DNA of 64,000 nt from the IMG/VR virus record IMGVR_UViG_3300045988_165212; one strand, written 5' to 3'. Positions 4,199 through 64,000 of this stretch are shown piece by piece. Numbering within the stretch: the stretch's first letter is position 1; every line of letters starts with the position of its first letter. This DNA comes from a virus. Below the pieces are notes generated by a model that was not told where the DNA came from, searched no databases, and was given only the letters and a program-made list of their open reading frames with translations. Made by a program: the position numbers and the translations under genes.

Positions 4199-7100
4199 AT
4201 GAAAATCGAAAGAAAGAGACTGGTACTCTTATCTCTTCTTATCTTTGGCGGCATCACCGCTTTTGCACAGAAAATCAGCAAAAACGTGATGCAGAAGATA
4301 TACGACGAGGTGAAGACACCTTATAAATACGGTATGGTAGTAGCTCCTAAGGACAACTACCACCAGATAGACTGTCCGATGGTGTACAGGGAGGGCGGCA
4401 AGTGGTATATGACCTATGTGGTATACAACGGCAAGGACGGAACGGATGGCAGAGGGTATGAAACATGGCTCGCTACCAGCGATGACCTGCTGCAATGGAA
4501 AACCCTGGGCAGACTGCTCTGCTATGCCGACAAGGGATGGGACATGAACCAGCGTGCTGGATATCCGGCGCTGATAGACTGGACCTGGAACGGATCTTAT
4601 GAGATGGCAAAATACAAAGGTCGCCACTGGATGAGCTATTTCGGTGGAGAAGGTACGGGCTATGAGGCCATCCGCAAGCCGCTCAATATGGGTATGGCTT
4701 CTACCAAAGGCGATATCACCCAGGCACATCCTTGGGAAACATTCCCTTCGCCTGTTCTCTCTATCAACGACAAAAGTGCACAGTGGTGGGAAAAACTCAC
4801 CCATTATAAAAGCACCGTCTACTGGGATAAGAACAAGACGTTGGGCAAACCTTTCGTCATGTTCTATAATGCCGGTGGCATCAACCCTGCCAACCAGCTG
4901 AAGGCAGAGCGTATCGGTATCGCCCTCTCCAGCAATATGACTTCCTGGCGCCGTCTGCCTCTCCGCACAGCCAAGCGAAAGACTGGCAATCCGGTGTTCT
5001 TCCATGAGGCTCCGGGCATCATTACGGGAGATGCACAGATCGTGAAGTTCCCGCATTATTATGTCATGTTCTATTTCTCTGCCTATAATCCGGAGAGAAA
5101 ATACAATGCCTACAATACATTTGCCGTAAGCCGGGACCTGGTGAACTGGCAGGACTGGGATGGAGCCGACCTGGTTTATCCTTCCAAACCTTATGATGAT
5201 ATGTTCGCCCATAAGAGTTATGTGCTGAAGCATCAGGGCGTGGTATACCATTTCTATTGTGCCGTGAACCATGCCGGACAGCGAGGCATCGCCGTGGCTA
5301 CGAGTGTGCCGATGGGACGTTCGCAGGTTTCTTTCCCGACACCCGAAAAGAAGGGAAAACGACAGATTGTGAGTCTGAATCAGGATTGGCAGGTAACCTT
5401 CGGCAAGACTTCGGAAGACAGCATCACGAAGAAGATGGGAACCTTCCGGGTGAATGTGCCTAGTAATCTGGACGATTATTACGGTTACCGCCAGCTGAAG
5501 CACGGCAACCTGCATGGTACCGCCACCTACGAGAAGCATTTCTCCGTTCATAAACAGACCGGAAAACGCTACTTCCTGCAGTTGGAAGGTGTGGGAACCT
5601 TTGCTACGGTCAAGGTGAACCGCAAGAGTTATCCGAAGGAACTGGTAGGCAGAACCAGCTTTACGCTCGATATCTCGGATGTACTTCGTGAGGGCGATAA
5701 TGTATTGAATGTCAAGGTAGAACATCCTGCCATGCAGACCAATAATCCTTGGCCTTGCGGCGGCTGTTCATCAGAATGGGGATTCTCGGAGGGCAGTCAG
5801 CCTTTCGGCATCTTCCGTCCGGTATCGCTCATCGAAACCGATGAGGTGAGGGTGGAGCCTTTCGGAGTACACGTCTGGAACAACGAGGCATGCGACAGCG
5901 TCTTTGTTGAAACCGAAGTGAAGAACTATTCCGACCATGAGCAGACCATCGAGGTAATCAGCAAACTGGCGCTGAGCAGTGGCAAGACCGCTTTCCGCCA
6001 GACCGGAAAGATTACCCTGAAGGCAGGCGAGACCCAGGTGGTCCGTCATCAGGCAAAGGTCAGCGATGCCCATCTGTGGAGCATCACGGATCCTTATCTC
6101 TATACCCTTTCCAGTATCATCAAACGAGAGGGCAAGACCATCGATGATGTGGCTACACCTTTCGGCATCCGCACCATCTCATGGCCGGTACTCCGACAGA
6201 AGCAGGCTGCGCTCCGTGGCGATTCAGCCCAGATGGATAAGAAAGACGGCAGATTCTATCTCAATGGCAGTCCGGTTTTCATCAACGGAACCTGCGATTA
6301 CGAGCACCTCTTCGGTCAGAGTCATGCCTTCTCTCACGAGCAGATTGCCTCCCGTGTCAAGATGATGCGTCAGGCAGGTTTCAATGCCTTCCGTGAGGCT
6401 CATCAGCCACATAATCTCTATTATCAGCAGTTGCTGGATGAGCAGGGCATGCTGTTCTGGAGTCAGTTCTCGGCACATGTCTGGTATGATACATCCGCCT
6501 TCCGCAAGAACTTCAAGCGTCTGCTGCGCCGTTGGATCAAGGAGCGCCGCAATTCGCCTAGCGTCATTCTCTGGGGCATTCAGAACGAGAGTGTGATGCC
6601 GAAGGATTTCACCGAGGAGTGTGCTGCCATTATCCGGGAGATGGACCCTACCGCTCAGACCATGCGCGCCATCACGACCTGTAATGGAGGAGAGGGAAGC
6701 GACTGGAATGTGATTCAGAACTGGAGCGGAACCTACGGCGGAACAGCCGATAAATATGATCAGGAATTGAAGCAGCCTAACCAGTTGCTGAATGGTGAAT
6801 ATGGTGCCTGGCGCACGCTCGGTTTCCGCAGTTCCGATGCAGAGAAACTGCATGCCGGTGATGCAAAGGCTCTGTCAAAAGCCTATACCGAAGATGCCTT
6901 TGTATCTCTTCTCGGCAAGAAGGCGATGCTGGCAGAGAGTGCCAGGGACAGCGTCTGCGGCCATTTCCAGTGGCTTTTCGTGTCGCATGAAAACCCGGGC
7001 AGAGTACAGCCGGATGAGGCTTACCGCCGTATCGACAAGGTGGGACCGTTCAATTACAAGGGACTTCTCACGCCTTGGGAACAGCCTACCGAAGGCTTCT

Positions 7101-8188
7101 ACTGGTATCGCAATCATTATACTAAGGTGCAGCCTGATACGCTTATGCCTACAGCTGCCGACCGCAGCAGAAATCTTCTGAAACCAGCCGAGGGTTATAC
7201 CTATCTGTATAGAGTGAACTGTGGCGGTGATGCCGTTACAGACAGTTATGGCAGCGAGTGGGAGCAGGACGACAGCGTCTATTCTCATTCCTGGGCAGAG
7301 CGTTTCGGCATGAATCCGTTTACGGCGAGTCAGGGACATATCACCTCCCGCATTCATGGCTTGAAATCATCATCTGCAGCCTCTCATCATGCTGCGGCTC
7401 ATGATGCACAGCTCTTCCAGTATTTCCGTTGGGGCCGTCATGCGCTGAACTATCAGTTTGCCGTTCCGGATGGAGAATATCGCGTAGAACTCTATTTTGC
7501 TGAGCCTTGGTTGGGCAAGCATGAGGGTGCCGGCATCGATTGTGAAGGCGAGCGCATCTTTGATGTAGCCATCAACGATTCCGTGGTAGTAGATGACCTC
7601 GACCTTTGGGCTGAGGCTGGCTTTGCGGGAGCCTGCAAGAAGGTGATAGATATCAAGGTAAAGGGCGGTCTGCTGACCATTTCTTTCCCGGAAGTAAAGG
7701 TGGGAGAGGCAATCATCTCTGCCATCGCCATTGCTGCCAAGGGAGAGATAGGAGATGCAGAAAAGTGGAATGTCGCCTTCAAGGGCAGCAAGCCTGAGAG
7801 CGGAATGAGCAAGACTTACTGGGCTGACCTGGATAAGGATGTGGTAGAGAAATATCCGAAGGAGCTGTTGCCTCAGGACAACGAAGTATTCCCGGCTGTG
7901 CGCTATAAGAGCAAGTCCTCAACCTGGACCATCAATCCTGGTGTAGCCCGCGAATACATGTTGCGTTTCCGCTATAAGAACACAACCGGTGAGCAACAGG
8001 TAGGCAGGTTGAAGATTGTGGACAGCAAGGGCATTGTCCTGCTGGATAGAGACATGACCTTCCCTGAAACGCCGAATAAGTTCAAAACCATCGGTACCAC
8101 TACTGATTCTCAGATCAATGCCGGTACCTATCAGATAATCCTCTCCGGTCTTCCGAACGTTTCGTTCGATTATCTGGAAGTGCAATAA
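4199..8188 (+). CDS. secreted multidomain glycoside hydrolase: N-terminal beta-propeller-like domain, GH2-type TIM barrel, malectin-like domain and C-terminal carbohydrate-binding-like domain
   Basis: 1329 aa with signal peptide MKIERKRLVLLSLLIFGGITAFAQ. GH2-like catalytic context ILWGIQNES (acid/base) and LLNGEYGAW (nucleophile). Malectin-like YRVNCGGDAVTDSYGSEWEQDD. Confidence 0.8.
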   Translation: MKIERKRLVLLSLLIFGGITAFAQKISKNVMQKIYDEVKTPYKYGMVVAPKDNYHQIDCPMVYREGGKWYMTYVVYNGKDGTDGRGYETWLATSDDLLQWKTLGRLLCYADKGWDMNQRAGYPALIDWTWNGSYEMAKYKGRHWMSYFGGEGTGYEAIRKPLNMGMASTKGDITQAHPWETFPSPVLSINDKSAQWWEKLTHYKSTVYWDKNKTLGKPFVMFYNAGGINPANQLKAERIGIALSSNMTSWRRLPLRTAKRKTGNPVFFHEAPGIITGDAQIVKFPHYYVMFYFSAYNPERKYNAYNTFAVSRDLVNWQDWDGADLVYPSKPYDDMFAHKSYVLKHQGVVYHFYCAVNHAGQRGIAVATSVPMGRSQVSFPTPEKKGKRQIVSLNQDWQVTFGKTSEDSITKKMGTFRVNVPSNLDDYYGYRQLKHGNLHGTATYEKHFSVHKQTGKRYFLQLEGVGTFATVKVNRKSYPKELVGRTSFTLDISDVLREGDNVLNVKVEHPAMQTNNPWPCGGCSSEWGFSEGSQPFGIFRPVSLIETDEVRVEPFGVHVWNNEACDSVFVETEVKNYSDHEQTIEVISKLALSSGKTAFRQTGKITLKAGETQVVRHQAKVSDAHLWSITDPYLYTLSSIIKREGKTIDDVATPFGIRTISWPVLRQKQAALRGDSAQMDKKDGRFYLNGSPVFINGTCDYEHLFGQSHAFSHEQIASRVKMMRQAGFNAFREAHQPHNLYYQQLLDEQGMLFWSQFSAHVWYDTSAFRKNFKRLLRRWIKERRNSPSVILWGIQNESVMPKDFTEECAAIIREMDPTAQTMRAITTCNGGEGSDWNVIQNWSGTYGGTADKYDQELKQPNQLLNGEYGAWRTLGFRSSDAEKLHAGDAKALSKAYTEDAFVSLLGKKAMLAESARDSVCGHFQWLFVSHENPGRVQPDEAYRRIDKVGPFNYKGLLTPWEQPTEGFYWYRNHYTKVQPDTLMPTAADRSRNLLKPAEGYTYLYRVNCGGDAVTDSYGSEWEQDDSVYSHSWAERFGMNPFTASQGHITSRIHGLKSSSAASHHAAAHDAQLFQYFRWGRHALNYQFAVPDGEYRVELYFAEPWLGKHEGAGIDCEGERIFDVAINDSVVVDDLDLWAEAGFAGACKKVIDIKVKGGLLTISFPEVKVGEAIISAIAIAAKGEIGDAEKWNVAFKGSKPESGMSKTYWADLDKDVVEKYPKELLPQDNEVFPAVRYKSKSSTWTINPGVAREYMLRFRYKNTTGEQQVGRLKIVDSKGIVLLDRDMTFPETPNKFKTIGTTTDSQINAGTYQIILSGLPNVSFDYLEVQ

Positions 8189-8192
8189 AAGG

Positions 8193-8267
8193 AAATCTGC
8201 GCCATTTGCGAAATCTGTGTGACTTAAGAATCTCACGCAGATGACGCAGATGGTGCAGATTTTTTTC
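8193..8267 (+). terminator. long imperfect hairpin plus T-tract downstream of the glycosidase
   Basis: AAATCTGCGCCATTTGCGAAATCTGTGTGA pairs imperfectly with TCTCACGCAGATGACGCAGATGGTGCAGATTT, followed by TTTTTTT. Confidence 0.55.
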
Positions 8268-8361
8268 TATCAGTATGGTTAAAATCGTTCTGGTTAGTAA
8301 AATGACGTATTATAATTCATTTTAATACCATTATTATGTTTCGGTCTACCCCATACCTACT

Positions 8362-9504
8362 CTATTGCACATTTTCCCCTATAACTTTTGAATATGGAAT
8401 CCCATTGACAAATAACGTAAATATCAAGTTTTTTTTATTGACATACCCTAAGTCTATAGCCATATTATACTTACCTTGTTTCTGTTTGCCTAATTTTCTA
8501 TTTACCAAAAATATACCATCTTGGGTATAAACTCCATAAGAAATATTCGCATCGTCTAAAAGCGAGTAACTCAAATTTACACCTGTATTATTAATATTTA
8601 CTGAATAGTTATTTGCTTTCAATAAATTTTGGCCTCTATCTTGTTGTTGCAACTTTTGACATTTTCCTTCTTTTGTTATCTTTCTACGAATTTCCTCATT
8701 GATAGAATCATCCGACAATTCGTTTTGCATAAGAACAGAGCAATATAAAGCTGAAGAATTCAAAATACGATTTCTTCCATTACAGGAAGAGATTGTTTCT
8801 AATCTTAAAATAGGATAGCGGTATCCAGGAGCATACCATCTATAAACATCATTTCTAACCAAAGCAGTATCACTCTTCATAAGACTATCAACTTTGTTAT
8901 AGGACAATTTAGGAATACTATCCAGTACACCATATTTTTGCAATTCTTTTTCCTTGCCATTAAACAATGAAGATACTAATCTTTGATTATGAATCAACAA
9001 TGTATTTGGCAGAGTATCTCTATCAATAGTTAGCAACGTACCTTTTCCTATGATTTTATACTTATATTTCCCACAAATATGCACCAAATCACCATGCACA
9101 TCGTCACCATGTGCTGAAAACCAACCTTTGCAGGAATCTTGTAAGCATAGGGGATAACGCAAGTCGATTTCGGCTTCATCATATTTAATTCTAGCTTGCT
9201 TATTTTGAAAGGCAACAAGATATAGTCCATCGCCTCGCTCATCATATAAGTATTTTGTTTTACCATCAAAACTGGCAATAAAAGCCTTTACTGTACTATC
9301 CCTATTTGAGAAAAAATGTAAATTTTGCTCATGTGAAAGTAGTTGAGCATCAGAAAAATCCCACATTTCTAGACTATCAGAAAGGGAGAAATTTTCTGAA
9401 AGTAATAATTCCGAAAACTTTAGGTTATCCCCTATGCGAATTTCATTTTGTCCTAAAATATGTATAGGGAACAATAACATAAGCAATAGTATCATTTTAT
9501 CCAT
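8362..9504 (-). CDS. secreted hypothetical protein, possible T9SS C-terminal sorting domain
   Basis: 380 aa with signal peptide MDKMILLLMLLFPIHILGQ. The C-terminal ~70 aa (VYTQDGIFLV..GKYNMAIDL..LIFTLFVNGIPYSKVIG) has a CTD-like pattern. Confidence 0.5.
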   Translation of the reverse strand: MDKMILLLMLLFPIHILGQNEIRIGDNLKFSELLLSENFSLSDSLEMWDFSDAQLLSHEQNLHFFSNRDSTVKAFIASFDGKTKYLYDERGDGLYLVAFQNKQARIKYDEAEIDLRYPLCLQDSCKGWFSAHGDDVHGDLVHICGKYKYKIIGKGTLLTIDRDTLPNTLLIHNQRLVSSLFNGKEKELQKYGVLDSIPKLSYNKVDSLMKSDTALVRNDVYRWYAPGYRYPILRLETISSCNGRNRILNSSALYCSVLMQNELSDDSINEEIRRKITKEGKCQKLQQQDRGQNLLKANNYSVNINNTGVNLSYSLLDDANISYGVYTQDGIFLVNRKLGKQKQGKYNMAIDLGYVNKKNLIFTLFVNGIPYSKVIGENVQ

Positions 9505-9527
9505 AACAACTATATGTAAAAGTAATT

Positions 9528-9890
9528 TTAATAATCCATAACCATACCTGTCTTTCGATAAAGTTGAATATAAACAGGCGATTCATAACTGTTACCATAT
9601 ACTTTCCAAGATTTTACATCCTTTACCACCTTTAAAGGATATTCATTCTTCTTCATGTATCCAAAATGAAGTTCATCCAATAACATAGAAGCAACTTCTG
9701 CCACACACTTAGGTGTAGAAATTATTCCTTCATTGTAAGAATACACAGTATTATCAGACTCATACAATGAATCTGATTTACTTTTAAACCACAATTTTTC
9801 ATTTATTTTTCCTTTATAACAAAACTCAATATTATCAAAACTAAAACTATCTGCCTTAGTCGTAATACCTACTAGATAACTACAAAACAT
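9528..9890 (-). CDS. hypothetical protein
   Basis: 120-aa ORF, AT-rich like its neighbour and on the same strand. Confidence 0.4.
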   Translation of the reverse strand: MFCSYLVGITTKADSFSFDNIEFCYKGKINEKLWFKSKSDSLYESDNTVYSYNEGIISTPKCVAEVASMLLDELHFGYMKKNEYPLKVVKDVKSWKVYGNSYESPVYIQLYRKTGMVMDY

Positions 9891-10206
9891 CCCAATAATT
9901 AAAGGGCACAGAACGAAGCGTATATAAAGCCTTATGCCTAAATATCGGGTGAAGTATTTGAAATATAGTTAGTTACGATAATCTTGCATGAATAGCGACA
10001 CAAAACGAAACGTTTACATGGGTTTAATTTTGGTTTAATTCTGTGGCCTCCTGGCTTGCGTTTGAGGGCGGTAGGATTGAATGAGGTTTACAAACGGCTT
10101 ACATGAGGATGATGGGACTTGTGCATGGGTGGCAATCGCTACCCTTTATTTTTGCCCTTTTATGATTATTTAAAATGCAAAATTATTCCATATAATTATT
10201 ATTTGG

Positions 10207-10214
10207 TATATTTG
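10207..10214 (+). promoter_or_regulatory. Bacteroidetes -7 promoter motif (TATATTTG = TAnnTTTG)
   Basis: Exact consensus match 24 nt upstream of the ATG at 10238. Confidence 0.3.
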
Positions 10215-10237
10215 CACCGAAATTTAAATGAATAGAT

Positions 10238-10480
10238 ATGGCAAAAGTTATACACGTCCATCTTATTGTGGGCAAACATAATGGCTTGAAAGACTTCTAC
10301 TTTTCAAGCATATCGGCGGTTTACACCGTGCTGACCTCTGAGGAGGTTGGTTGTACCAAGAGTTACTTGCTTCATGCTGGTCTGTCTGGCAATGGGTCAA
10401 TAATCACGAAACGAGCTATTATAAAGCAATCTACGCTCATTTCTGGCACTCGCCAAGGGTCTATGAAGGATGATGGTTAA
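10238..10480 (+). CDS. hypothetical small protein (80 aa)
   Basis: ORF with a -7 motif upstream and a hairpin plus T-run downstream (about 10531..10556). Unclear whether host or phage. Confidence 0.45.
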   Translation: MAKVIHVHLIVGKHNGLKDFYFSSISAVYTVLTSEEVGCTKSYLLHAGLSGNGSIITKRAIIKQSTLISGTRQGSMKDDG

Positions 10481-10579
10481 AATGCCGTTAGAACGGCTTA
10501 TTTACGGTGTTCAAACCGAATGTTAACGAGGGGGCTTCACGGCTCCCTTTTTTCATGCTCAAAAGTGGTGATTTTTGGG

Positions 10580-10637
10580 TAAGGGTTACACTAAGGGTTA
10601 CAGTTAAGGGTTACACTTTCGAGAATTAAGGGTTACA
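10580..10637 (+). promoter_or_regulatory. four direct copies of TAAGGGTTACA (candidate transposase or repressor binding sites at the phage left end)
   Basis: Exact 11-mers at 10580, 10592, 10605 and 10627. Looser G(G/T)TTACA copies at 10012, 10085 and 10739. Confidence 0.55.
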
Positions 10638-10791
10638 AAAGTGGGGTCGTTGGCATACAAAAAGCTGAACGAAGAAACTAACCACTTTTTGCGGTTAATT
10701 GTGAGGAAACTACCCCTTTCGGAGCAACGATTTTTGAAGTTTACACCTTATTATATATAATATATAGGGCTTTTTGGGCGATAAAGAGGGG

Positions 10792-10827
10792 GTGACACCC
10801 CACTTGGAGTGCCAAAGGGGGTGTCAC
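10792..10827 (-). terminator. hairpin just downstream of the repressor gene
   Basis: GTGACACCCC (10792-10801) pairs perfectly with GGGGTGTCAC (10818-10827) around a 16-nt loop. The following T-run is weak. Confidence 0.35.
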
Positions 10828-10834
10828 TATGGGG

Positions 10835-11545
10835 TTAAAAGAACTTGCTTATGCTACCAATGACCTCAAAGATATTCAATATCCTTGATTTCGGGTATTC
10901 TTGTTCATCGTATTCTTGCAAGTTGATTGGGATGAAACGGAACTTGTCAGGATCATCAGACTTGCGCAATATCTTGATGGTTCGTATCGTGTCAAGCACA
11001 ACAGCGTATATTTCGCCATACTGAACATCATCCAGCGTACATTGGCGAAGAGCAATGATGTCGCCATGATTGATTTTTGGCTCCATTGAATGGCCAGTGA
11101 CATTGCACCATAAATCAGCTTTCTCAAAACCACGGATGACAATGTTGGTTGCAGGAACACTAACCTGAGAGTTTAGTATCTCTGTGAAGCCACCAATGAA
11201 ATCTACATCATAGTATGGCTTACCAACATCTGGATCATCAGCGAGCTTTGGAGTGTTGAGTGTTAAACTTTCTTTATTGTGCGAAATGTTTTGCTCATTT
11301 TCTTTGCAGATAGATTCAAAATGCTTATCTGAACACCTATTTCTAAACATTTCGCCCTCTCCAGTGAGAAGCCAATCGCCTGAGATATATTCGCATTTTG
11401 AATATATCAACTCCGTATCAAAAGAACCTCTAAGCAACCAAGTATTGATTGTTTGAGGCTTAACGCCTATCTTTTCGGCAAATTTCGCCTTTATTCCACC
11501 AGAATAGTAGTCTATCAAAGCGTTTAATATCTCTATCTTATTCAT
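10835..11545 (-). CDS. phage repressor, N-terminal HTH plus C-terminal S24 (LexA/CI-like) peptidase domain
   Basis: 236 aa. HTH-like KFAEKIGVKPQTINTWL. S24 signature VTGHSMEPKINHGDIIAL and downstream TIKILRK. Divergent from the early operon. Confidence 0.8.
   Translation of the reverse strand: MNKIEILNALIDYYSGGIKAKFAEKIGVKPQTINTWLLRGSFDTELIYSKCEYISGDWLLTGEGEMFRNRCSDKHFESICKENEQNISHNKESLTLNTPKLADDPDVGKPYYDVDFIGGFTEILNSQVSVPATNIVIRGFEKADLWCNVTGHSMEPKINHGDIIALRQCTLDDVQYGEIYAVVLDTIRTIKILRKSDDPDKFRFIPINLQEYDEQEYPKSRILNIFEVIGSISKFF
11303..11330. promoter_or_regulatory. operator-like 28-mer, copy inside the repressor coding sequence
   Basis: TTTGCAGATAGATTCAAAATGCTTATCT matches 11593..11620 with one mismatch, exactly 290 bp away. 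Confidence 0.4.
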
Positions 11546-11592
11546 ATTGCGTATAAATTATATTCATTACGCGAAAATAATCGCTTTAAAAT

Positions 11593-11620
11593 TTTGCAGA
11601 TATATTCAAAATGCTTATCT
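11593..11620. promoter_or_regulatory. operator-like 28-mer, copy in the repressor/early intergenic region
   Basis: TTTGCAGATATATTCAAAATGCTTATCT. Overlaps a -7 motif TATCTTTG at 11616..11623. Confidence 0.4.
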
Positions 11621-11623
11621 TTG
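11616..11623 (+). promoter_or_regulatory. Bacteroidetes -7 motif (TATCTTTG), candidate early promoter
   Basis: Exact TAnnTTTG match about 105 nt upstream of the first early ORF. Confidence 0.3.
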
Positions 11624-11728
11624 CACCGTGTTACTAAAGGAACACAGCGCCAAAGATACAAAAAAGGCGTGAGAAAGACGAATTTTGCATCTTAAAAAGA
11701 TAAAACAAGATTTGTATAACGATTAAAA

Positions 11729-12178: not shown

Positions 12179-12193
12179 TCAAGGAGGTGAGAA

Positions 12194-14191: not shown

Positions 14192-14235
14192 ACATCATCC
14201 AAACATCATTATAATAACGATTAAAGATTACAGCT

Positions 14236-53658: not shown

Positions 53659-53661
53659 AAG

Positions 53662-53886: not shown

Positions 53887-53891
53887 ACGCC

Positions 53892-54515: not shown

Positions 54516-54517
54516 AA

Positions 54518-55641: not shown

Positions 55642-55685
55642 AGCTGTAATCTTTAATCGTTATTATAATGATGTTTGGATGATGT

Positions 55686-57683
55686 CTAAATGTCGGCCAA
55701 AGCTCGTTCCTCGATGGACATTTCCTCTTGATGGTCTTCATCGGGTTCCTCTATCTTTGGCGGTGGAAGCACCAGACATTCATCAATGTCTTCCTGTTTC
55801 TTTTCCACCTTCATCACTCCAACCTTGCCAATGGCATTGTCCTTGACGTATTTTGTAAACGAGGCAACTTTCTTCTGTTGTGCTTGGTATTTCTCCAAGT
55901 CTTCATCAGTCTGTTCTGCCATCACACGGTTGTAGGTTTCCACTCGTTCCACTTGGTCAATGAATCTGTCACCTTGAAAGATGAACACCTCTTGTGGCTT
56001 GCCGTCTGCATCTGGAATGTAGTATGCCGTCACCTTATTGTTGTTTGGCTCCAGACGTTCCAGCTTTTCGGTCTTGCTCAACCACCAATCTTCGTATGCC
56101 ACTCTTACGGTGGAGTTTCTTCTGATGCTTGTTTCCACTCTCTCACCAATGTATCTTGCAAGCGTAAGTTTGTCAAGCGGTTGAAGGGTTGGATTGATGT
56201 TGGCAACAAGAACGTCCCATCTGCTCATACCAGGGTACTTCTTTTGATTCGGGTGCAAGCTGTGATTCCACTCATAGTTGTCTTGGCGGTCATCAGCTAT
56301 CAGTTGATCATAGCTGAAATATTCCTTATCCTCATAAAGCTCGTTGGTTTCGTCACTGATTTTCTTGCTTTCCGTGCGCCACTTGCCTTTTCCATAGAAA
56401 CGGCCAATGCCTTCATGGTTCTTGTGGATGATGCTGCGTTTCTTCGCACCGTTCAAGTTCTCTGCATATTTCTCTTGCGAGTTCTGAGGCGCACAGAAAT
56501 GAACGAATGGGAATGCGACACCTGCTTGCAGAAATCCGTCCTTGTATTGCGACATCAAGTGATTCTCAACCTCAATACCTGCTGGCATACCCCAACCATT
56601 GCGTTCTATCAGTCGGAACATATCCCTAAAGCAGTCAAGCACCAGGATTTCATCCTTTTTCCTTGCGTAAGATGCGCCAATCACACATTGGCTGACCACA
56701 TCATAAGCATAGTAAGCGTGAACCCTCTGCTTGGTGTCTTTCAACTTTCGTGTCAAGTCCACGTCATCCATTGTGATTTGGCTCAAAGAGAACTCACCTG
56801 CATGGCGGTGCATGTGCGGCATCTGTTCGTGCATGAAGGTGGTGTAACTCATAAGTTCATGTTCAATTAGCACCTTGTTTTTCGGTCGGTTCAAGTAGTT
56901 GGTGATTGTCGATTCACTCAAAACCTTTGGTTCACCGCTCTTGTCTGTGAAATCATCGGGGTTGAATAGTTCTCCAGTTTCAGGATCATAGACCTCTATT
57001 TCACCACAAACAAACGAATTGTATAGTTCCAAGACACTTGTGTTGAATGGCTTGTTAGGAAGTACTGCCAAGCCCAAAATCAAGCGTTCCGTCTTGTAAT
57101 CAACCTTGCGTGCGCTTTGGTTTCCGAACTTGCCACTTATCAGACAGGCATAGCCAAACTTCTTGTATTCGGCTACTTTCTTTCTGAATCGCATGGTTGA
57201 AGCAGGTAGCGTATGGCCAAATTTCTCTTTGAGTGTTTTGATGGTGGTTGCCATCTTTTCCCAGTCGTATTTTTCTCCCATCAGCTTCTTTGATGCGCTT
57301 GCACGGTTGTAGAGCTTGATGCAAGTGTTCAGAACAGAGGCATTCACCACATATTCCTTCACTTTCTCTTGTGTGAGGTCAAGCCCAGTCTTGGCACGGT
57401 CGTTGAAGAAAGCAACGGCTGCTTGGTCGGTCTCATAGTTGGACGTTATCCAACCCTCCAGTCTCACAGTGTCACCACCAGGATAAAGTTCATCCACCAT
57501 TTTGCGGTAGATGGTAGGAATGCTATCAACGGCAACCAGAGCATAACGTCCTTGCCCCTTACCGCTACGCACCACATTGATGCGCTTCCTGGCAGATAGC
57601 TGCTTGTAGTTCGAGGCAGTCATTATGCCACCGTCAACAAGCTCACGTGCTGAAATGCAAAGTGTGTTACCGTAATACTCCAT
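55686..57683 (-). CDS. putative Mu A-like transposase (arm copy)
   Basis: Identical to 12194..14191. Confidence 0.65.
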   Translation of the reverse strand: MEYYGNTLCISARELVDGGIMTASNYKQLSARKRINVVRSGKGQGRYALVAVDSIPTIYRKMVDELYPGGDTVRLEGWITSNYETDQAAVAFFNDRAKTGLDLTQEKVKEYVVNASVLNTCIKLYNRASASKKLMGEKYDWEKMATTIKTLKEKFGHTLPASTMRFRKKVAEYKKFGYACLISGKFGNQSARKVDYKTERLILGLAVLPNKPFNTSVLELYNSFVCGEIEVYDPETGELFNPDDFTDKSGEPKVLSESTITNYLNRPKNKVLIEHELMSYTTFMHEQMPHMHRHAGEFSLSQITMDDVDLTRKLKDTKQRVHAYYAYDVVSQCVIGASYARKKDEILVLDCFRDMFRLIERNGWGMPAGIEVENHLMSQYKDGFLQAGVAFPFVHFCAPQNSQEKYAENLNGAKKRSIIHKNHEGIGRFYGKGKWRTESKKISDETNELYEDKEYFSYDQLIADDRQDNYEWNHSLHPNQKKYPGMSRWDVLVANINPTLQPLDKLTLARYIGERVETSIRRNSTVRVAYEDWWLSKTEKLERLEPNNNKVTAYYIPDADGKPQEVFIFQGDRFIDQVERVETYNRVMAEQTDEDLEKYQAQQKKVASFTKYVKDNAIGKVGVMKVEKKQEDIDECLVLPPPKIEEPDEDHQEEMSIEERALADI

Positions 57684-57698
57684 TTCTCACCTCCTTGA

Positions 57699-58148
57699 TT
57701 ATTCGGCACAAACAGGTCTTGCGTACTTTTTGTAAAGCTCTGGGGTAGTCAAGATGTCGGCATCCCTCTGTGTCCATGCAGCAAAGATGCTTTGGATTTC
57801 TTCCAGTTGCTTGATTTTCACATCCTGGTATTGCTTCATCATCTTGCCCTTGTAGAACACATCCACATTGCCATTGGCTTTGTTGCACTCAATCATTGCA
57901 CCATTGGGGAAGTATTGGCGCATATAGCCATCTGCATCATGGATGGTCTCAACCTCTGGGGCAACTATCATCACAATGCCACCTTTCTGCTTGGCATATA
58001 CACGGATGCGCTTTGCCTTGTCACTTTCGCCACGCTTCGCATCAAAGTTCAGGGCATAATAAACCATTTTCCCTGTAACGTTGAACGCTGCCATGATGTC
58101 CTGGCGAACTTCTCTTGTTACGTCAATGTACTTTTTCATTGCTTCCAT
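57699..58148 (-). CDS. hypothetical early protein (arm copy)
   Basis: Identical to 11729..12178. Confidence 0.55.
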   Translation of the reverse strand: MEAMKKYIDVTREVRQDIMAAFNVTGKMVYYALNFDAKRGESDKAKRIRVYAKQKGGIVMIVAPEVETIHDADGYMRQYFPNGAMIECNKANGNVDVFYKGKMMKQYQDVKIKQLEEIQSIFAAWTQRDADILTTPELYKKYARPVCAE

Positions 58149-58331
58149 TTTTAATCGTTATACAAATCTTGTTTTATCTTTTTAAGATGCAAAATTCGTC
58201 TTTCTCACGCCTTTTTTGTATCTTTGGCGCTGTGTTCCTTTAGTAACACGGTGCAAAGATAAGCATTTTGAATATATCTGCAAAATTTTAAAGCGATTAT
58301 TTTCGCGTAATGAATATAATTTATACGCAAT

Positions 58332-59042
58332 ATGAATAAGATAGAGATATTAAACGCTTTGATAGACTACTATTCTGGTGGAATAAAGGCGAAATTTGCC
58401 GAAAAGATAGGCGTTAAGCCTCAAACAATCAATACTTGGTTGCTTAGAGGTTCTTTTGATACGGAGTTGATATATTCAAAATGCGAATATATCTCAGGCG
58501 ATTGGCTTCTCACTGGAGAGGGCGAAATGTTTAGAAATAGGTGTTCAGATAAGCATTTTGAATCTATCTGCAAAGAAAATGAGCAAAACATTTCGCACAA
58601 TAAAGAAAGTTTAACACTCAACACTCCAAAGCTCGCTGATGATCCAGATGTTGGTAAGCCATACTATGATGTAGATTTCATTGGTGGCTTCACAGAGATA
58701 CTAAACTCTCAGGTTAGTGTTCCTGCAACCAACATTGTCATCCGTGGTTTTGAGAAAGCTGATTTATGGTGCAATGTCACTGGCCATTCAATGGAGCCAA
58801 AAATCAATCATGGCGACATCATTGCTCTTCGCCAATGTACGCTGGATGATGTTCAGTATGGCGAAATATACGCTGTTGTGCTTGACACGATACGAACCAT
58901 CAAGATATTGCGCAAGTCTGATGATCCTGACAAGTTCCGTTTCATCCCAATCAACTTGCAAGAATACGATGAACAAGAATACCCGAAATCAAGGATATTG
59001 AATATCTTTGAGGTCATTGGTAGCATAAGCAAGTTCTTTTAA
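58332..59042 (+). CDS. S24-type phage repressor (arm copy)
   Basis: Identical to 10835..11545. Confidence 0.8.
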   Translation: MNKIEILNALIDYYSGGIKAKFAEKIGVKPQTINTWLLRGSFDTELIYSKCEYISGDWLLTGEGEMFRNRCSDKHFESICKENEQNISHNKESLTLNTPKLADDPDVGKPYYDVDFIGGFTEILNSQVSVPATNIVIRGFEKADLWCNVTGHSMEPKINHGDIIALRQCTLDDVQYGEIYAVVLDTIRTIKILRKSDDPDKFRFIPINLQEYDEQEYPKSRILNIFEVIGSISKFF

Positions 59043-59239
59043 CCCCATAGTGACACCCCCTTTGGCACTCCAAGTGGGGTGTCACCCCCTCTTTATCGCC
59101 CAAAAAGCCCTATATATTATATATAATAAGGTGTAAACTTCAAAAATCGTTGCTCCGAAAGGGGTAGTTTCCTCACAATTAACCGCAAAAAGTGGTTAGT
59201 TTCTTCGTTCAGCTTTTTGTATGCCAACGACCCCACTTT

Positions 59240-59297
59240 TGTAACCCTTAATTCTCGAAAGTGTAACCCTTAACTGTAACCCTTAGTGTAACCCTTA
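59240..59297 (-). promoter_or_regulatory. four TAAGGGTTACA repeats (arm copy)
   Basis: Mirror of 10580..10637. Confidence 0.55.
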
Positions 59298-59396
59298 CCC
59301 AAAAATCACCACTTTTGAGCATGAAAAAAGGGAGCCGTGAAGCCCCCTCGTTAACATTCGGTTTGAACACCGTAAATAAGCCGTTCTAACGGCATT

Positions 59397-59639
59397 TTAA
59401 CCATCATCCTTCATAGACCCTTGGCGAGTGCCAGAAATGAGCGTAGATTGCTTTATAATAGCTCGTTTCGTGATTATTGACCCATTGCCAGACAGACCAG
59501 CATGAAGCAAGTAACTCTTGGTACAACCAACCTCCTCAGAGGTCAGCACGGTGTAAACCGCCGATATGCTTGAAAAGTAGAAGTCTTTCAAGCCATTATG
59601 TTTGCCCACAATAAGATGGACGTGTATAACTTTTGCCAT
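59397..59639 (-). CDS. hypothetical small protein (arm copy)
   Basis: Identical to 10238..10480. Confidence 0.45.
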   Translation of the reverse strand: MAKVIHVHLIVGKHNGLKDFYFSSISAVYTVLTSEEVGCTKSYLLHAGLSGNGSIITKRAIIKQSTLISGTRQGSMKDDG

Positions 59640-59986
59640 ATCTATTCATTTAAATTTCGGTGCAAATATACCAAATAATAATTATATGGAATAATTTTGC
59701 ATTTTAAATAATCATAAAAGGGCAAAAATAAAGGGTAGCGATTGCCACCCATGCACAAGTCCCATCATCCTCATGTAAGCCGTTTGTAAACCTCATTCAA
59801 TCCTACCGCCCTCAAACGCAAGCCAGGAGGCCACAGAATTAAACCAAAATTAAACCCATGTAAACGTTTCGTTTTGTGTCGCTATTCATGCAAGATTATC
59901 GTAACTAACTATATTTCAAATACTTCACCCGATATTTAGGCATAAGGCTTTATATACGCTTCGTTCTGTGCCCTTTAATTATTGGG

Positions 59987-60349
59987 ATGTTTTGTAGTTA
60001 TCTAGTAGGTATTACGACTAAGGCAGATAGTTTTAGTTTTGATAATATTGAGTTTTGTTATAAAGGAAAAATAAATGAAAAATTGTGGTTTAAAAGTAAA
60101 TCAGATTCATTGTATGAGTCTGATAATACTGTGTATTCTTACAATGAAGGAATAATTTCTACACCTAAGTGTGTGGCAGAAGTTGCTTCTATGTTATTGG
60201 ATGAACTTCATTTTGGATACATGAAGAAGAATGAATATCCTTTAAAGGTGGTAAAGGATGTAAAATCTTGGAAAGTATATGGTAACAGTTATGAATCGCC
60301 TGTTTATATTCAACTTTATCGAAAGACAGGTATGGTTATGGATTATTAA
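59987..60349 (+). CDS. hypothetical protein (arm copy)
   Basis: Identical to 9528..9890. Confidence 0.4.
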   Translation: MFCSYLVGITTKADSFSFDNIEFCYKGKINEKLWFKSKSDSLYESDNTVYSYNEGIISTPKCVAEVASMLLDELHFGYMKKNEYPLKVVKDVKSWKVYGNSYESPVYIQLYRKTGMVMDY

Positions 60350-60372
60350 AATTACTTTTACATATAGTTGTT

Positions 60373-61515
60373 ATGGATAAAATGATACTATTGCTTATGT
60401 TATTGTTCCCTATACATATTTTAGGACAAAATGAAATTCGCATAGGGGATAACCTAAAGTTTTCGGAATTATTACTTTCAGAAAATTTCTCCCTTTCTGA
60501 TAGTCTAGAAATGTGGGATTTTTCTGATGCTCAACTACTTTCACATGAGCAAAATTTACATTTTTTCTCAAATAGGGATAGTACAGTAAAGGCTTTTATT
60601 GCCAGTTTTGATGGTAAAACAAAATACTTATATGATGAGCGAGGCGATGGACTATATCTTGTTGCCTTTCAAAATAAGCAAGCTAGAATTAAATATGATG
60701 AAGCCGAAATCGACTTGCGTTATCCCCTATGCTTACAAGATTCCTGCAAAGGTTGGTTTTCAGCACATGGTGACGATGTGCATGGTGATTTGGTGCATAT
60801 TTGTGGGAAATATAAGTATAAAATCATAGGAAAAGGTACGTTGCTAACTATTGATAGAGATACTCTGCCAAATACATTGTTGATTCATAATCAAAGATTA
60901 GTATCTTCATTGTTTAATGGCAAGGAAAAAGAATTGCAAAAATATGGTGTACTGGATAGTATTCCTAAATTGTCCTATAACAAAGTTGATAGTCTTATGA
61001 AGAGTGATACTGCTTTGGTTAGAAATGATGTTTATAGATGGTATGCTCCTGGATACCGCTATCCTATTTTAAGATTAGAAACAATCTCTTCCTGTAATGG
61101 AAGAAATCGTATTTTGAATTCTTCAGCTTTATATTGCTCTGTTCTTATGCAAAACGAATTGTCGGATGATTCTATCAATGAGGAAATTCGTAGAAAGATA
61201 ACAAAAGAAGGAAAATGTCAAAAGTTGCAACAACAAGATAGAGGCCAAAATTTATTGAAAGCAAATAACTATTCAGTAAATATTAATAATACAGGTGTAA
61301 ATTTGAGTTACTCGCTTTTAGACGATGCGAATATTTCTTATGGAGTTTATACCCAAGATGGTATATTTTTGGTAAATAGAAAATTAGGCAAACAGAAACA
61401 AGGTAAGTATAATATGGCTATAGACTTAGGGTATGTCAATAAAAAAAACTTGATATTTACGTTATTTGTCAATGGGATTCCATATTCAAAAGTTATAGGG
61501 GAAAATGTGCAATAG
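60373..61515 (+). CDS. secreted hypothetical protein (arm copy)
   Basis: Identical to 8362..9504. Confidence 0.5.
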   Translation: MDKMILLLMLLFPIHILGQNEIRIGDNLKFSELLLSENFSLSDSLEMWDFSDAQLLSHEQNLHFFSNRDSTVKAFIASFDGKTKYLYDERGDGLYLVAFQNKQARIKYDEAEIDLRYPLCLQDSCKGWFSAHGDDVHGDLVHICGKYKYKIIGKGTLLTIDRDTLPNTLLIHNQRLVSSLFNGKEKELQKYGVLDSIPKLSYNKVDSLMKSDTALVRNDVYRWYAPGYRYPILRLETISSCNGRNRILNSSALYCSVLMQNELSDDSINEEIRRKITKEGKCQKLQQQDRGQNLLKANNYSVNINNTGVNLSYSLLDDANISYGVYTQDGIFLVNRKLGKQKQGKYNMAIDLGYVNKKNLIFTLFVNGIPYSKVIGENVQ

Positions 61516-61609
61516 AGTAGGTATGGGGTAGACCGAAACATAATAATGGTATTAAAATGAATTATAATACGTCATTTTACTAACCAGAACGATTTTAACC
61601 ATACTGATA

Positions 61610-61684
61610 GAAAAAAATCTGCACCATCTGCGTCATCTGCGTGAGATTCTTAAGTCACACAGATTTCGCAAATGGCGCAGATTT
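61610..61684 (-). terminator. long hairpin terminator (arm copy)
   Basis: Mirror of 8193..8267. Confidence 0.55.
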
Positions 61685-61688
61685 CCTT

Positions 61689-64000
61689 TTATTGCACTTC
61701 CAGATAATCGAACGAAACGTTCGGAAGACCGGAGAGGATTATCTGATAGGTACCGGCATTGATCTGAGAATCAGTAGTGGTACCGATGGTTTTGAACTTA
61801 TTCGGCGTTTCAGGGAAGGTCATGTCTCTATCCAGCAGGACAATGCCCTTGCTGTCCACAATCTTCAACCTGCCTACCTGTTGCTCACCGGTTGTGTTCT
61901 TATAGCGGAAACGCAACATGTATTCGCGGGCTACACCAGGATTGATGGTCCAGGTTGAGGACTTGCTCTTATAGCGCACAGCCGGGAATACTTCGTTGTC
62001 CTGAGGCAACAGCTCCTTCGGATATTTCTCTACCACATCCTTATCCAGGTCAGCCCAGTAAGTCTTGCTCATTCCGCTCTCAGGCTTGCTGCCCTTGAAG
62101 GCGACATTCCACTTTTCTGCATCTCCTATCTCTCCCTTGGCAGCAATGGCGATGGCAGAGATGATTGCCTCTCCCACCTTTACTTCCGGGAAAGAAATGG
62201 TCAGCAGACCGCCCTTTACCTTGATATCTATCACCTTCTTGCAGGCTCCCGCAAAGCCAGCCTCAGCCCAAAGGTCGAGGTCATCTACTACCACGGAATC
62301 GTTGATGGCTACATCAAAGATGCGCTCGCCTTCACAATCGATGCCGGCACCCTCATGCTTGCCCAACCAAGGCTCAGCAAAATAGAGTTCTACGCGATAT
62401 TCTCCATCCGGAACGGCAAACTGATAGTTCAGCGCATGACGGCCCCAACGGAAATACTGGAAGAGCTGTGCATCATGAGCCGCAGCATGATGAGAGGCTG
62501 CAGATGATGATTTCAAGCCATGAATGCGGGAGGTGATATGTCCCTGACTCGCCGTAAACGGATTCATGCCGAAACGCTCTGCCCAGGAATGAGAATAGAC
62601 GCTGTCGTCCTGCTCCCACTCGCTGCCATAACTGTCTGTAACGGCATCACCGCCACAGTTCACTCTATACAGATAGGTATAACCCTCGGCTGGTTTCAGA
62701 AGATTTCTGCTGCGGTCGGCAGCTGTAGGCATAAGCGTATCAGGCTGCACCTTAGTATAATGATTGCGATACCAGTAGAAGCCTTCGGTAGGCTGTTCCC
62801 AAGGCGTGAGAAGTCCCTTGTAATTGAACGGTCCCACCTTGTCGATACGGCGGTAAGCCTCATCCGGCTGTACTCTGCCCGGGTTTTCATGCGACACGAA
62901 AAGCCACTGGAAATGGCCGCAGACGCTGTCCCTGGCACTCTCTGCCAGCATCGCCTTCTTGCCGAGAAGAGATACAAAGGCATCTTCGGTATAGGCTTTT
63001 GACAGAGCCTTTGCATCACCGGCATGCAGTTTCTCTGCATCGGAACTGCGGAAACCGAGCGTGCGCCAGGCACCATATTCACCATTCAGCAACTGGTTAG
63101 GCTGCTTCAATTCCTGATCATATTTATCGGCTGTTCCGCCGTAGGTTCCGCTCCAGTTCTGAATCACATTCCAGTCGCTTCCCTCTCCTCCATTACAGGT
63201 CGTGATGGCGCGCATGGTCTGAGCGGTAGGGTCCATCTCCCGGATAATGGCAGCACACTCCTCGGTGAAATCCTTCGGCATCACACTCTCGTTCTGAATG
63301 CCCCAGAGAATGACGCTAGGCGAATTGCGGCGCTCCTTGATCCAACGGCGCAGCAGACGCTTGAAGTTCTTGCGGAAGGCGGATGTATCATACCAGACAT
63401 GTGCCGAGAACTGACTCCAGAACAGCATGCCCTGCTCATCCAGCAACTGCTGATAATAGAGATTATGTGGCTGATGAGCCTCACGGAAGGCATTGAAACC
63501 TGCCTGACGCATCATCTTGACACGGGAGGCAATCTGCTCGTGAGAGAAGGCATGACTCTGACCGAAGAGGTGCTCGTAATCGCAGGTTCCGTTGATGAAA
63601 ACCGGACTGCCATTGAGATAGAATCTGCCGTCTTTCTTATCCATCTGGGCTGAATCGCCACGGAGCGCAGCCTGCTTCTGTCGGAGTACCGGCCATGAGA
63701 TGGTGCGGATGCCGAAAGGTGTAGCCACATCATCGATGGTCTTGCCCTCTCGTTTGATGATACTGGAAAGGGTATAGAGATAAGGATCCGTGATGCTCCA
63801 CAGATGGGCATCGCTGACCTTTGCCTGATGACGGACCACCTGGGTCTCGCCTGCCTTCAGGGTAATCTTTCCGGTCTGGCGGAAAGCGGTCTTGCCACTG
63901 CTCAGCGCCAGTTTGCTGATTACCTCGATGGTCTGCTCATGGTCGGAATAGTTCTTCACTTCGGTTTCAACAAAGACGCTGTCGCATGCCTCGTTGTTCC
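61689..64000 (-). CDS. C-terminal 770 codons of the multidomain glycosidase (arm copy, cut by the window edge)
   Basis: Mirror of 5877..8188. The track ORF 61689..63959 begins at an internal Met, but the reading frame stays open to the window edge. Confidence 0.8.
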   Translation of the reverse strand, partial: NNEACDSVFVETEVKNYSDHEQTIEVISKLALSSGKTAFRQTGKITLKAGETQVVRHQAKVSDAHLWSITDPYLYTLSSIIKREGKTIDDVATPFGIRTISWPVLRQKQAALRGDSAQMDKKDGRFYLNGSPVFINGTCDYEHLFGQSHAFSHEQIASRVKMMRQAGFNAFREAHQPHNLYYQQLLDEQGMLFWSQFSAHVWYDTSAFRKNFKRLLRRWIKERRNSPSVILWGIQNESVMPKDFTEECAAIIREMDPTAQTMRAITTCNGGEGSDWNVIQNWSGTYGGTADKYDQELKQPNQLLNGEYGAWRTLGFRSSDAEKLHAGDAKALSKAYTEDAFVSLLGKKAMLAESARDSVCGHFQWLFVSHENPGRVQPDEAYRRIDKVGPFNYKGLLTPWEQPTEGFYWYRNHYTKVQPDTLMPTAADRSRNLLKPAEGYTYLYRVNCGGDAVTDSYGSEWEQDDSVYSHSWAERFGMNPFTASQGHITSRIHGLKSSSAASHHAAAHDAQLFQYFRWGRHALNYQFAVPDGEYRVELYFAEPWLGKHEGAGIDCEGERIFDVAINDSVVVDDLDLWAEAGFAGACKKVIDIKVKGGLLTISFPEVKVGEAIISAIAIAAKGEIGDAEKWNVAFKGSKPESGMSKTYWADLDKDVVEKYPKELLPQDNEVFPAVRYKSKSSTWTINPGVAREYMLRFRYKNTTGEQQVGRLKIVDSKGIVLLDRDMTFPETPNKFKTIGTTTDSQINAGTYQIILSGLPNVSFDYLEVQ

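Follow-up and report, generated by a model that had tools for sequence, protein, structure and literature searches.

In the window (the whole 64,000-nt stretch of the IMG/VR record analysed here), a 26.5-kb phage core stands between two long arms, each of which is written as the reverse complement of the other. The question raised by this arrangement is whether the palindrome belongs to a chromosome or to the construction of the contig.

Geometry of the palindrome

Direct comparison of 5877..21664 with 48213..64000 read in reverse complement (x maps to 69877-x) gave no mismatch in 15,788 positions, and the earlier note was right to call the palindrome perfect. It is the only pair of large inverted repeats in the window, the letters of which include no N. 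Complementarity drops to background directly inside 21665/48212. The inner arm edge (48213/21664) is the start of the TR/VR homology, so that identity does stop, as had been claimed, at the 5' edge of the DGR repeat. Position 5877 pairs with 64000, which makes the outer arm boundary a mere window end; of the arms of 15.8 kb that the note described, the exact identity stands, but their length is a minimum only, and they may extend further. The arms carry the 3' part of a GH2/malectin glycosidase, two small host ORFs, the phage left end, an S24 repressor, MuA- and MuB-like genes, the early operon, an Avd-like gene, the reverse transcriptase (RT) and a spacer, and Pfam, PHROGs and sequence comparisons bear out the content first listed for them (host genes, left end, early operon, RT, spacer). 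A simple fold-back or missing-adapter read is ruled out by the 26.5-kb non-palindromic core.

1..9903, no strand: host left flank (Pfam; 100% identical to L051 of ERZ27229799:k119_275841; homology to the empty sites L020-L027 ends at 9903)
5877..21664, no strand: left arm, in itself real sequence (reverse complement of 48213..64000), with an aberrant attachment to the core at 21664/21665
9904..9930, plus strand: phage left end (TAAAGGGCACAGAACGAAGCG...), from the window against empty site L024 and another insertion, L005
10835..11545, minus strand: S24-peptidase repressor (Pfam PF00717)
12194..14191, plus strand: MuA-like transposase (phrog_310; 31% amino acid identity to Hankyphage MuA)
14236..15111, plus strand: MuB-like AAA protein (AAA_22; 28% amino acid identity to Hankyphage MuB)
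18434..19491, plus strand: Neck1/Phage_tail_S homologue and a 147-aa ORF, the end of the early-strand block (tblastn against Hankyphage Neck1)
21665..48212, no strand: unique core, 26.5 kb (PHROGs; synteny with Hankyphage; 100% identical to L012 outside the repeat)
48213..64000, no strand: right arm, natively attached to the core, with the phage left end at 59973 and host DNA from 59974

Prophage and host flank

The element belongs to the Mu-type transposable prophages, measures ~38.7 kb and has Bacteroides Hankyphage p00 as a relative. The Mu-like hallmark is present near the left end, where the phrog_310 transposase and the AAA_22 ATPase lie behind the S24 repressor in synteny with Hankyphage, and PF05069 is present in loci homologous to the Neck1/Phage_tail_S region at 18434..19491. 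In the core, PHROGs place tail fibre, minor tail, hub, tape measure, tail, lysis, capsid and protease genes on the minus strand, and TerS, TerL, adaptor, portal and MuF genes on the plus strand, the last followed by 196 nt of non-coding DNA.

The host left flank contains small ORFs, a hipA/HTH cassette, a GH2-malectin glycosidase (4199..8188) and a 380-aa ORF; a further host ORF of 120 aa is the remnant of a 135-aa gene interrupted by the prophage. A target-site copy, ATAAT, lies at 9899..9903, just before the phage left end, and comparison with the empty site showed that this 5-bp duplication flanks the prophage. A Mu-type transposition product would have its junction at a phage end, whereas here it coincides with the DGR repeat, and this origin was rejected for the palindrome.

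The exact S24 repressor protein is recorded in 919 blocks, and the ten contigs displayed share the arm layout but have ten different host flanks; among all displayed contigs carrying the phage, at least ten flanks are distinct. A megablast of 32 kb of the window against complete phage records in the GenBank phage set gave no match. The phage is a very widespread transposable phage of the gut, with no close complete genome in the GenBank phage set searched.

The DGR and its repeats

The repeat at the arm edges belongs to a DGR whose RT and Avd-like genes appear in both arms.

19564..20046, minus strand: Avd-like DUF4376 gene, left-arm copy (Pfam DUF4376; 63% amino acid identity to Avd of jmh72_hp)
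20046..21347, minus strand: DGR reverse transcriptase, left-arm copy (Pfam RVT_1; 82% amino acid identity to RT of jmh72_hp)
21348..21550, minus strand: TR-to-RT spacer, left-arm copy, misplaced directly after the tail-fibre gene (alignment with native VR ends)
21551..21664, minus strand: TR sequence in the place of the VR, equal to the TR of 9 of 10 independent contigs
21498..28322, minus strand: chimeric tail-fibre ORF of 2274 aa, ending ...GSRLDKLITPSIGLPYQGRDS and stop (the native protein, 2279 aa, ends ...GSRLAFRGQIVWAQSVSAFKSISEVA and stop)
48017..48212, plus strand: non-coding leader of the TR (same flank in all TR-bearing loci)
48213..48326, plus strand: native template repeat, TR (114-nt TR/VR homology)
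48327..50313, plus strand: spacer, RT (48530..49831) and Avd-like gene (49831..50313) in native context (order in independent loci)

The RT is of the DGR type (RVT_1) and stands beside the template repeat, with 203 nt between the end of the repeat and the RT gene downstream. A putative Avd is the 160-aa DUF4376 protein, which shares 63% amino acid identity with the protein annotated as Avd in jmh72_hp. The last ~45 nt of the TR leader are homologous to the upstream flank of the Hankyphage TR (..TTTGCA...AAAGGTGG...CCCA(A)TA).

TR and VR are inverted repeats of 114 nt, ~85–90% identical. The repeat does lie at the arm edge, as first reported, but its extent of 21498-21664/48213-48379 was too long: the homology covers 114 nt (48213..48326/21551..21664) and not 167, and the stretch from there out to 21498/48379 is spacer flanking the TR. 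The longest exact TR/VR match, TAAGCCGTGTGGTTTATCGTGGGTAC(A), measures 24–27 nt and begins at 48213, the arm edge; it is the only exact block of at least 21 nt.

Native VRs, available from five contigs, differ from the TR at 12–17 positions, all but one of them TR adenines. In the window, by contrast with these native copies, there is no adenine-only TR/VR pattern: none of the 28 adenines in the first 112 nt of the repeat at 21551..21664 is changed, and as both copies have the TR sequence, no VR exists anywhere in the window. That the repeat in the fibre gene is identical to the TR might suggest retrohoming, in which cDNA of unmutated TR-RNA replaced the VR and dragged flanking sequence along. 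In the DGR model, priming takes place in the spacer and the cDNA spans the TR alone (PMC12135933, PMC5758913); it cannot carry the RT, Avd, 9.6 kb of early genes and more than 4 kb of host DNA, and 28 unmutated adenines are improbable where all five native VRs carry changes. This reading has almost no probability and is effectively refuted, because the copied flank is 15.8 kb long.

Native layout in independent loci

The two junctions between core and arms differ in what precedes the repeat. On the left, the tail-fibre flank leads into an unmutated TR, then the spacer and the RT; on the right, MuF is followed by non-coding DNA, the TR, the spacer and the RT. The native order, read from 32 independent loci with a TR, starts with host DNA, the left end and the early genes; Avd, RT and TR come next, on the opposite strand, and are followed by head genes, tail genes, right end and host, and the tail genes finish with the tail fibre that carries the VR. 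It follows from this order that TR and VR are inverted, 26.5 kb apart. The layout was surveyed in 24 contigs from a look-up of the RT, 23 from a look-up of the repressor and 13 viral loci, and in every locus displayed across these three sets non-coding DNA, TR, spacer and RT lie downstream of MuF. In the RT set, MuF was upstream of the RT in 24 of the 24 contigs inspected, and each locus displayed from them had MuF, TR, RT and Avd, then early genes on the opposite strand. A layout of the p00 type with collapsed direct VR and TR, suggested by the synteny of fibre, repeat, RT and Avd with p00, was rejected because the early block, not the right end, follows Avd, and because TR, RT and Avd are downstream of MuF in every locus displayed. 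A 433-aa ORF beside the prophage in one locus (L013) has the length of the RT but is unrelated to it.

A census of 37 independent loci gave 32 native TR junctions, five native VR junctions, and neither a chimeric nor a reciprocal junction. The comparison with these loci identifies the right junction as native and the left as the false one. Missing at the left junction are the genuine VR and the final 22 fibre codons, as well as the phage's right end and the host DNA beyond it. In contigs with the same tail genes, the native VR is followed by AFRGQIVWAQSVSAFKSISEVA and a stop, ~215 bp, and the right end; neither the coding tail after the VR nor the native right-end sequence was found in the window when up to 3 mismatches were allowed. 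The native 2279-aa fibre gene is present in three loci (L012-L014), and an exact look-up of the 2274-aa chimeric protein returned no record. Two other assemblies (L015, L016) stop within the VR, an indication that the spot is hard to assemble.

These results agree with the main claims of the earlier note. It had proposed that TR and VR are inverted and that the contig, having entered one copy, continues in the neighbouring sequence of the other, which the independent assemblies show; that one arm would be spurious, which holds for the junction of the left one (in 0 of 37 loci, against 32 of 32 TR-bearing loci for the right one); that no phage right end is present, as the search with up to 3 mismatches found; and that the true flank of VR or TR is missing together with the right end. 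The missing flank is that of the VR, comprising 22 codons, ~215 bp, the right end, ATAAT and a host flank with RHS/Imm-NTF2-2.

A left junction of exactly this form would also arise if homologous recombination between TR and VR flipped the core in part of the population and an assembler merged the isomers into a palindrome. The 114-nt inverted repeats, their ~85–90% identity and the exact block of 24–27 nt at the crossover point would allow for this, but the reciprocal junction (non-coding DNA, repeat, AFRG tail, right end) is found neither in the window nor in the 37 loci. RecA-type recombination usually needs an exact length equal to or greater than this block, which is therefore at or below the minimum. 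The product would truncate the conserved C-terminus of the tail fibre, and the palindromic contig would remain wrong even so. Inversion isomers are a decidedly improbable source.

The same lysogen in a second assembly

The MEGAHIT contig ERZ27229799:k119_275841 (67.9 kb) contains the same lysogen at the same host site. In a comparison covering 41 kb of this contig, host left flank and phage were 100.000% identical to the window over 19,890 bp, while the core had 11 mismatches in 21,296 bp, all of them A-to-N changes in the VR. Its right end is normal, ATAAT is duplicated as a 5-bp target site, and the remaining, right-hand half of the empty site seen in L024 follows. The spacing between its loci L051 and L012 is 7141 bp both in the record and in the window, and the right arm is colinear with it.

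The sequence as given has the form of a real inverted duplication of the chromosome, in which template switching or an exchange between sister strands at TR and VR would have copied the host left flank and a third of the prophage in reverse; fold-back duplications mediated by inverted repeats are known from bacteria and yeast. Such a duplication is very unlikely. The 100% identical lysogen has an ordinary structure elsewhere, both ends of the window run into the same host flank and leave the right flank unattached, and a circular chromosome would need a second palindromic junction. At more than 64 kb, the structure cannot be a packaged phage genome of ~39 kb, and complete agreement of the arms over 15,788 positions is consistent with one sequence having been written out twice.

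Origin of the palindrome

The palindrome is very probably an artefact of contig construction at an inverted repeat, and not a structure of the chromosome, because the same prophage at the same host site has been assembled normally elsewhere, with its right end and right host flank. The arms show no divergence, the switch point falls on a sequence that is inverted at both ends of the core, and the true alternative exit exists in the same lysogen (L012) and is missing from the window.

The real genome has the form X-TR'-M-VR-W. Here X is the host left flank, phage left end, early genes, and Avd and RT on the opposite strand; M is the 26.5-kb core of structural genes; and W runs from the final 22 tail-fibre codons through the phage right end into the host DNA on that side. 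The assembler's path, or an underlying chimeric read or molecule, would enter the VR from the tail-fibre side and switch to the TR, probably within the only long exact TR/VR block, TAAGCCGTGTGGTTTATCGTGGGTAC(A), starting at the arm edge. Leaving along the TR's own flank, it would write X a second time in reverse and lose W. The true exit from the VR would carry A-to-N variants at 21,551-21,664 and continue into GCCTTCCGCGGTCAAATCGTC. The mis-join step itself we infer; it may have been, for example, a chimeric read, or a de Bruijn graph that collapsed at small k and lost its low-coverage VR variants to pruning.

Two points count against an artefact. Many unitig-based assemblers normally do not reuse one unitig in both orientations, and the exact block of 24–27 nt could serve as a real, if inefficient, substrate for recombination. 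That the chimeric junction is real, with ectopic recombination or template switching between TR and VR flipping or fold-back-duplicating the 26.5-kb structural module, is nevertheless unlikely; if it were true, the DGR's own repeats would be a hotspot of rearrangement, at the cost of a functional tail fibre. The chimeric junction was looked for in viral_contigs, genome_contigs and metagenome_contigs, and the reciprocal junction in viral_contigs, without a match; these scans carry no weight since the positive control, the native VR with its tail-fibre flank, was blank in all three collections as well, and the native TR control, with 13 matches, was the sole probe to match. Between an error of assembler or chimeric read and a rare real recombinant molecule, parsimony almost certainly decides for the error.

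Accordingly, neither an inverted duplication nor a phage with inverted repeats at its termini should be deduced from the contig, and nor should a DGR in which VR equals TR. Any gene count, prophage boundary or DGR call based on this contig would be wrong, with the fibre chimeric, RT, Avd and early genes doubled, and the right end absent. The underlying biology is real and of a known kind, a DGR that acts across 26.5 kb on a target of the opposite strand. There is a general trap here: inverted TR and VR offer assemblers a wrong exit, and palindromic contigs centred on DGR phages are suspect.

Comparison with known systems

Palindromic contigs have been described as errors of short-read assembly, with 81 such contigs in assemblies of M. 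bovis (PMC9455707). The window resembles these hairpin contigs in its perfect reverse-complement arms, in the switch at a shared inverted repeat, in the loss of one true flank, and in the normal structure seen in other assemblies of the same strain. It differs in that the genomic repeat copies, TR and diversified VR, are not identical, so that collapse needs a small-k step, heterogeneity of the VR or a chimeric read; and, unlike a simple fold-back read, it has 26.5 kb of unique core between the arms.

The Hankyphage references used (p00, BK010646; jmh72_hp, PV107408) are Mu-like transposable phages with a tail-fibre DGR. Hankyphage transposes by MuA/MuB-type proteins, inserting at random with 5-bp target duplications (PMC6199706), and the present phage shares MuA/MuB-type transposition, random insertion (at least ten different host flanks) and a 5-bp duplication, here ATAAT. 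The tail module and DGR are homologous (amino acid identity 82% for RT, 63% for Avd, 55% for tail fibre, 71% for hub), as is the TR leader, and in both a large tail-fibre gene has the VR at its 3' end, with the AFRG... tail after it. In contrast, proteins of the early and head modules are only 25–33% identical, and the absence of a megablast match for 32 kb of the window places the phage outside the species and genus of p00. The right end of p00-type phages contains VR and TR as direct repeats with a distance of 370 bp, whereas here MuF and the early block enclose TR, RT and Avd, with the VR inverted and 26.5 kb away, and the right end comes ~215 bp after the fibre gene, without thyA or methyltransferase genes.

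Phage DGRs with non-adjacent targets are known, in which the VR lies within 50 kb of the RT gene in the same prophage (Wu et al. 2018, PMC5758913). The present DGR is like these in that its target VR is apart from TR and RT within one prophage; in the published cases one target is usually adjacent (PMC5758913), while the only VR found here is the distant, inverted one.

The palindrome and its limits

As the earlier note had claimed, the two arms of the palindrome (5877..21664 and 48213..64000) match each other perfectly in reverse complement, without a mismatch over 15,788 bases. Just inward of both limits, complementarity is at background level. No other large inverted repeat occurs in the window, which has no N bases. 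So large a perfect repeat cannot have arisen by chance. Under the pairing rule x <-> 69877-x, position 5877 lies opposite 64000, so that the outer arm edge merely reflects where the window stops, and 15,788 bases is a lower bound for the arms. The inner edge falls, again as claimed, on the repeat of the diversity-generating retroelement (DGR): the longest exact match between template repeat (TR) and variable repeat (VR) starts at 48213. The gene content is as follows.

Arms (Pfam, PHROGs): GH2/malectin glycosidase, two small host ORFs, S24 repressor, MuA-type transposase (phrog_310), MuB-type AAA protein, early operon
Arms, opposite strand (Pfam, PHROGs): DUF4376 (Avd-like) gene, reverse transcriptase (RT)
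Core, minus strand: tail fibre, minor tail, hub, tape measure, capsid, protease
Core, plus strand: TerS, TerL, adaptor, portal, MuF

The same lysogen in ordinary form

Homology between the window and empty-site host contigs ends at 9903, and phage homology begins at 9904. The empty site reads ..CCCAATAAT|GAAACTTGC.., the left phage/host junction of the window ..CCCAATAAT|TAAAGGGCAC.., and the right phage/host junction, seen in the public-contig locus L012, ..GCGGATTAT|ATAAT GAAACTTGC.. The target duplication is 5 bp (ATAAT); 5-bp target duplications have been reported for Hankyphage (PMC6199706). It lies within the 135-aa gene of an RHS-toxin/Imm-NTF2-2 immunity cluster, which the prophage cuts 32 nt from the gene start, leaving a 120-aa remnant ORF (window 9528-9903; empty-site contig L024, 8495-8902; L012, 21579-24227).

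Used as a marker of this particular insertion, the remnant led to a further locus, L051, which shares one 67,910-bp MEGAHIT contig (ERZ27229799:k119_275841) with L012. Window 1..19890 matches L051 at 100.000% identity. Against L012, window 42846..21551 has 11 mismatches, each an A-to-N change within the VR. In the record the two loci lie 7141 bp apart, as do positions 42846 and 49987 of the window. From this identity and equal spacing, the contig comprises the right arm and core of the window and then runs on through the VR and the phage right end into the right host flank; its structure is the ordinary one, with no palindrome. An inverted duplication, if real, would leave the right host flank unattached, and a circular chromosome would have to contain another palindromic junction; at >64 kb the duplication would also be too large for a packaged genome. 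In another assembly of this lysogen, ERZ28569202 scaffold_594 (loci L052 and L016), the contig breaks off within or shortly after the VR (L016 end 21313), as it does in L015, an independent assembly of the phage (end 21327). These ends show that assemblers have trouble at this spot, and they agree with a disruption of short-read assembly by VR heterogeneity at the very place of the mis-join in the window.

The left host flank also carries a toxin-antitoxin-like cassette of hipA (417 aa) and HTH (115 aa) genes (window 2305-4096) between 123-nt direct repeats that are 93% identical (2150-2272 and 4074-4196). The related host contig L020 has a single repeat copy and no cassette, so the cassette behaves as an insertion/deletion unit.

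The two inner junctions

Twenty-four contigs bearing the exact RT, from MEGAHIT, SPAdes and JGI assemblies plus one NCBI genome, have the order TerS, TerL, adaptor, portal, MuF, TR, RT, Avd in every locus listed; past Avd, on the opposite strand, come a 147-aa gene, Neck1, the early genes, MuB and MuA, then the repressor and host DNA. Contigs listed via the repressor show the identical arm layout with ten different host flanks, as expected of Mu-like random insertion. Because independent contigs share this native layout, the arm is correct within itself, and at 48213 the right junction has its native form. The non-coding leader of the window TR is homologous to the Hankyphage TR leader. Just upstream of TR (window 48160-48212), TACGTAACTTTGCAG fits TAnnTTTG, the Bacteroides -7 promoter motif, and a similar motif before the Hankyphage TR suggests a putative dedicated promoter for TR RNA.

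The MuF-family head protein is 483 aa long in the window (46565-48016) and most contigs, and 679 aa in three others (L002, L007, L009; gene about 7449-9488), a C-terminal extension polymorphism.

At the left junction (21664/21665) the window departs from the native form. In contigs with an identical 1408-aa minor tail protein, the native fibre gene encodes 2279 aa, and its repeat shows 12-17 differences from the window repeat, all but one at TR adenines; by this pattern it is a textbook VR. Past ...CGCCTGG the native sequence continues GCCTTCCGCGG..., coding for AFRGQIVWAQSVSAFKSISEVA*, and the fibre stop is followed by ~215 bp with two hairpins and then the phage end ...GCGGATTAT, beyond which contigs of different insertion sites diverge. 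The window fibre-gene repeat is TR exactly (0/28 adenines changed) and leads into the TR spacer and RT, so that the fibre ORF ends ...GSRLDKLITPSIGLPYQGRDS*. A retrohoming product would be unable to carry the 15.8 kb of flank that follows. The VR tail and right end are not found in the window, in agreement with the earlier remark that the phage right end is missing.

Across all fetched loci there are 32 native TR junctions, 5 native VR junctions, 0 chimeric junctions (tail-fibre flank, TR, spacer/RT) and 0 reciprocal junctions (non-coding leader, repeat, native VR tail/right end). Exact look-up of the chimeric 2274-aa fibre protein gave no record. Neither the chimeric nor the reciprocal junction turned up when the collections were scanned, but controls for the native VR with this flank gave no match either, so these scans do not count as evidence. 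If TR and VR had really recombined in inversion, the left junction would result, but a reciprocal one would be predicted, which is absent from the window and the fetched loci, and the fibre would be truncated. Inversion, inverted duplication and retrohoming are, even jointly, improbable.

Proposed origin of the probable mis-join

The palindrome is very probably an artefact with a false left junction. The true genome is X-TR'-M-VR-W, in which TR and VR are in inverted orientation and separated by 26.5 kb; X is the left host flank, phage left end, early genes and Avd/RT, M the 26.5-kb core, and W the fibre 3' end, right end and right host flank. An assembly graph with TR and VR in one node would permit the walk X-R-M-R'-X', which is the form of the window. 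When the TR context is compared with each of five native VR contexts, the longest exact match measures 24-27 nt and starts at the arm edge, 48213 (48215 in one of the five); the next longest exact blocks are 13-20 nt. A join at the longer block may be the outcome of a k=21 step, or of a chimeric read formed from short homology, and would be favoured especially if single VR variants were rare. Assembly errors in the form of palindromic contigs have been described in other data (PMC9455707). The earlier note had preferred a reading in which TR and VR are inverted and a crossing into the flank of the other copy made one arm spurious; the independent assemblies, and the same lysogen assembled normally, support it.

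Relationship to known phages and DGRs

The RT is 82% identical to those of Bacteroides Hankyphage relatives. Tail and DGR proteins are 55-82% identical to those of the annotated Hankyphage genome jmh72_hp, whereas early and head proteins are just 25-33% identical, and there is no DNA-level match among complete GenBank phage records. On these comparisons the phage is a mosaic: its tail and DGR module is of Hankyphage type, and its early and head modules are distant. The p00-type Hankyphages have VR (the fibre gene end) and TR at the right end as direct repeats with 370 bp between them; next come RT, Avd, thyA, methylase and the right end itself. Here, in contrast, TR, RT and Avd lie between MuF and the early block (48017-50313), inverted to VR and 26.5 kb away; Neck1 and the 147-aa gene (18434-19491) are on the early-operon strand; and the right-end thyA and methyltransferase genes are lacking, with ~215 bp from fibre gene to right end. 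The native prophage is ~38.7 kb in size; in the window the phage covers 9904-21664 and 21665-48212, and loci L002-L011 and L041-L050 represent it elsewhere. It is very common in public gut assemblies, where 3228 blocks contain the exact RT protein and 919 the exact repressor, and it sits at many insertion sites.

As a structure, the palindrome is not a real feature; the underlying system is a Mu-like prophage carrying a Hankyphage-type DGR whose target is inverted and not adjacent. The phage is noteworthy in being common in gut metagenomes without a close complete genome among GenBank phage records. It is not a new kind of system, and DGRs with a non-adjacent target elsewhere in their prophage, within 50 kb, are already known (PMC5758913).
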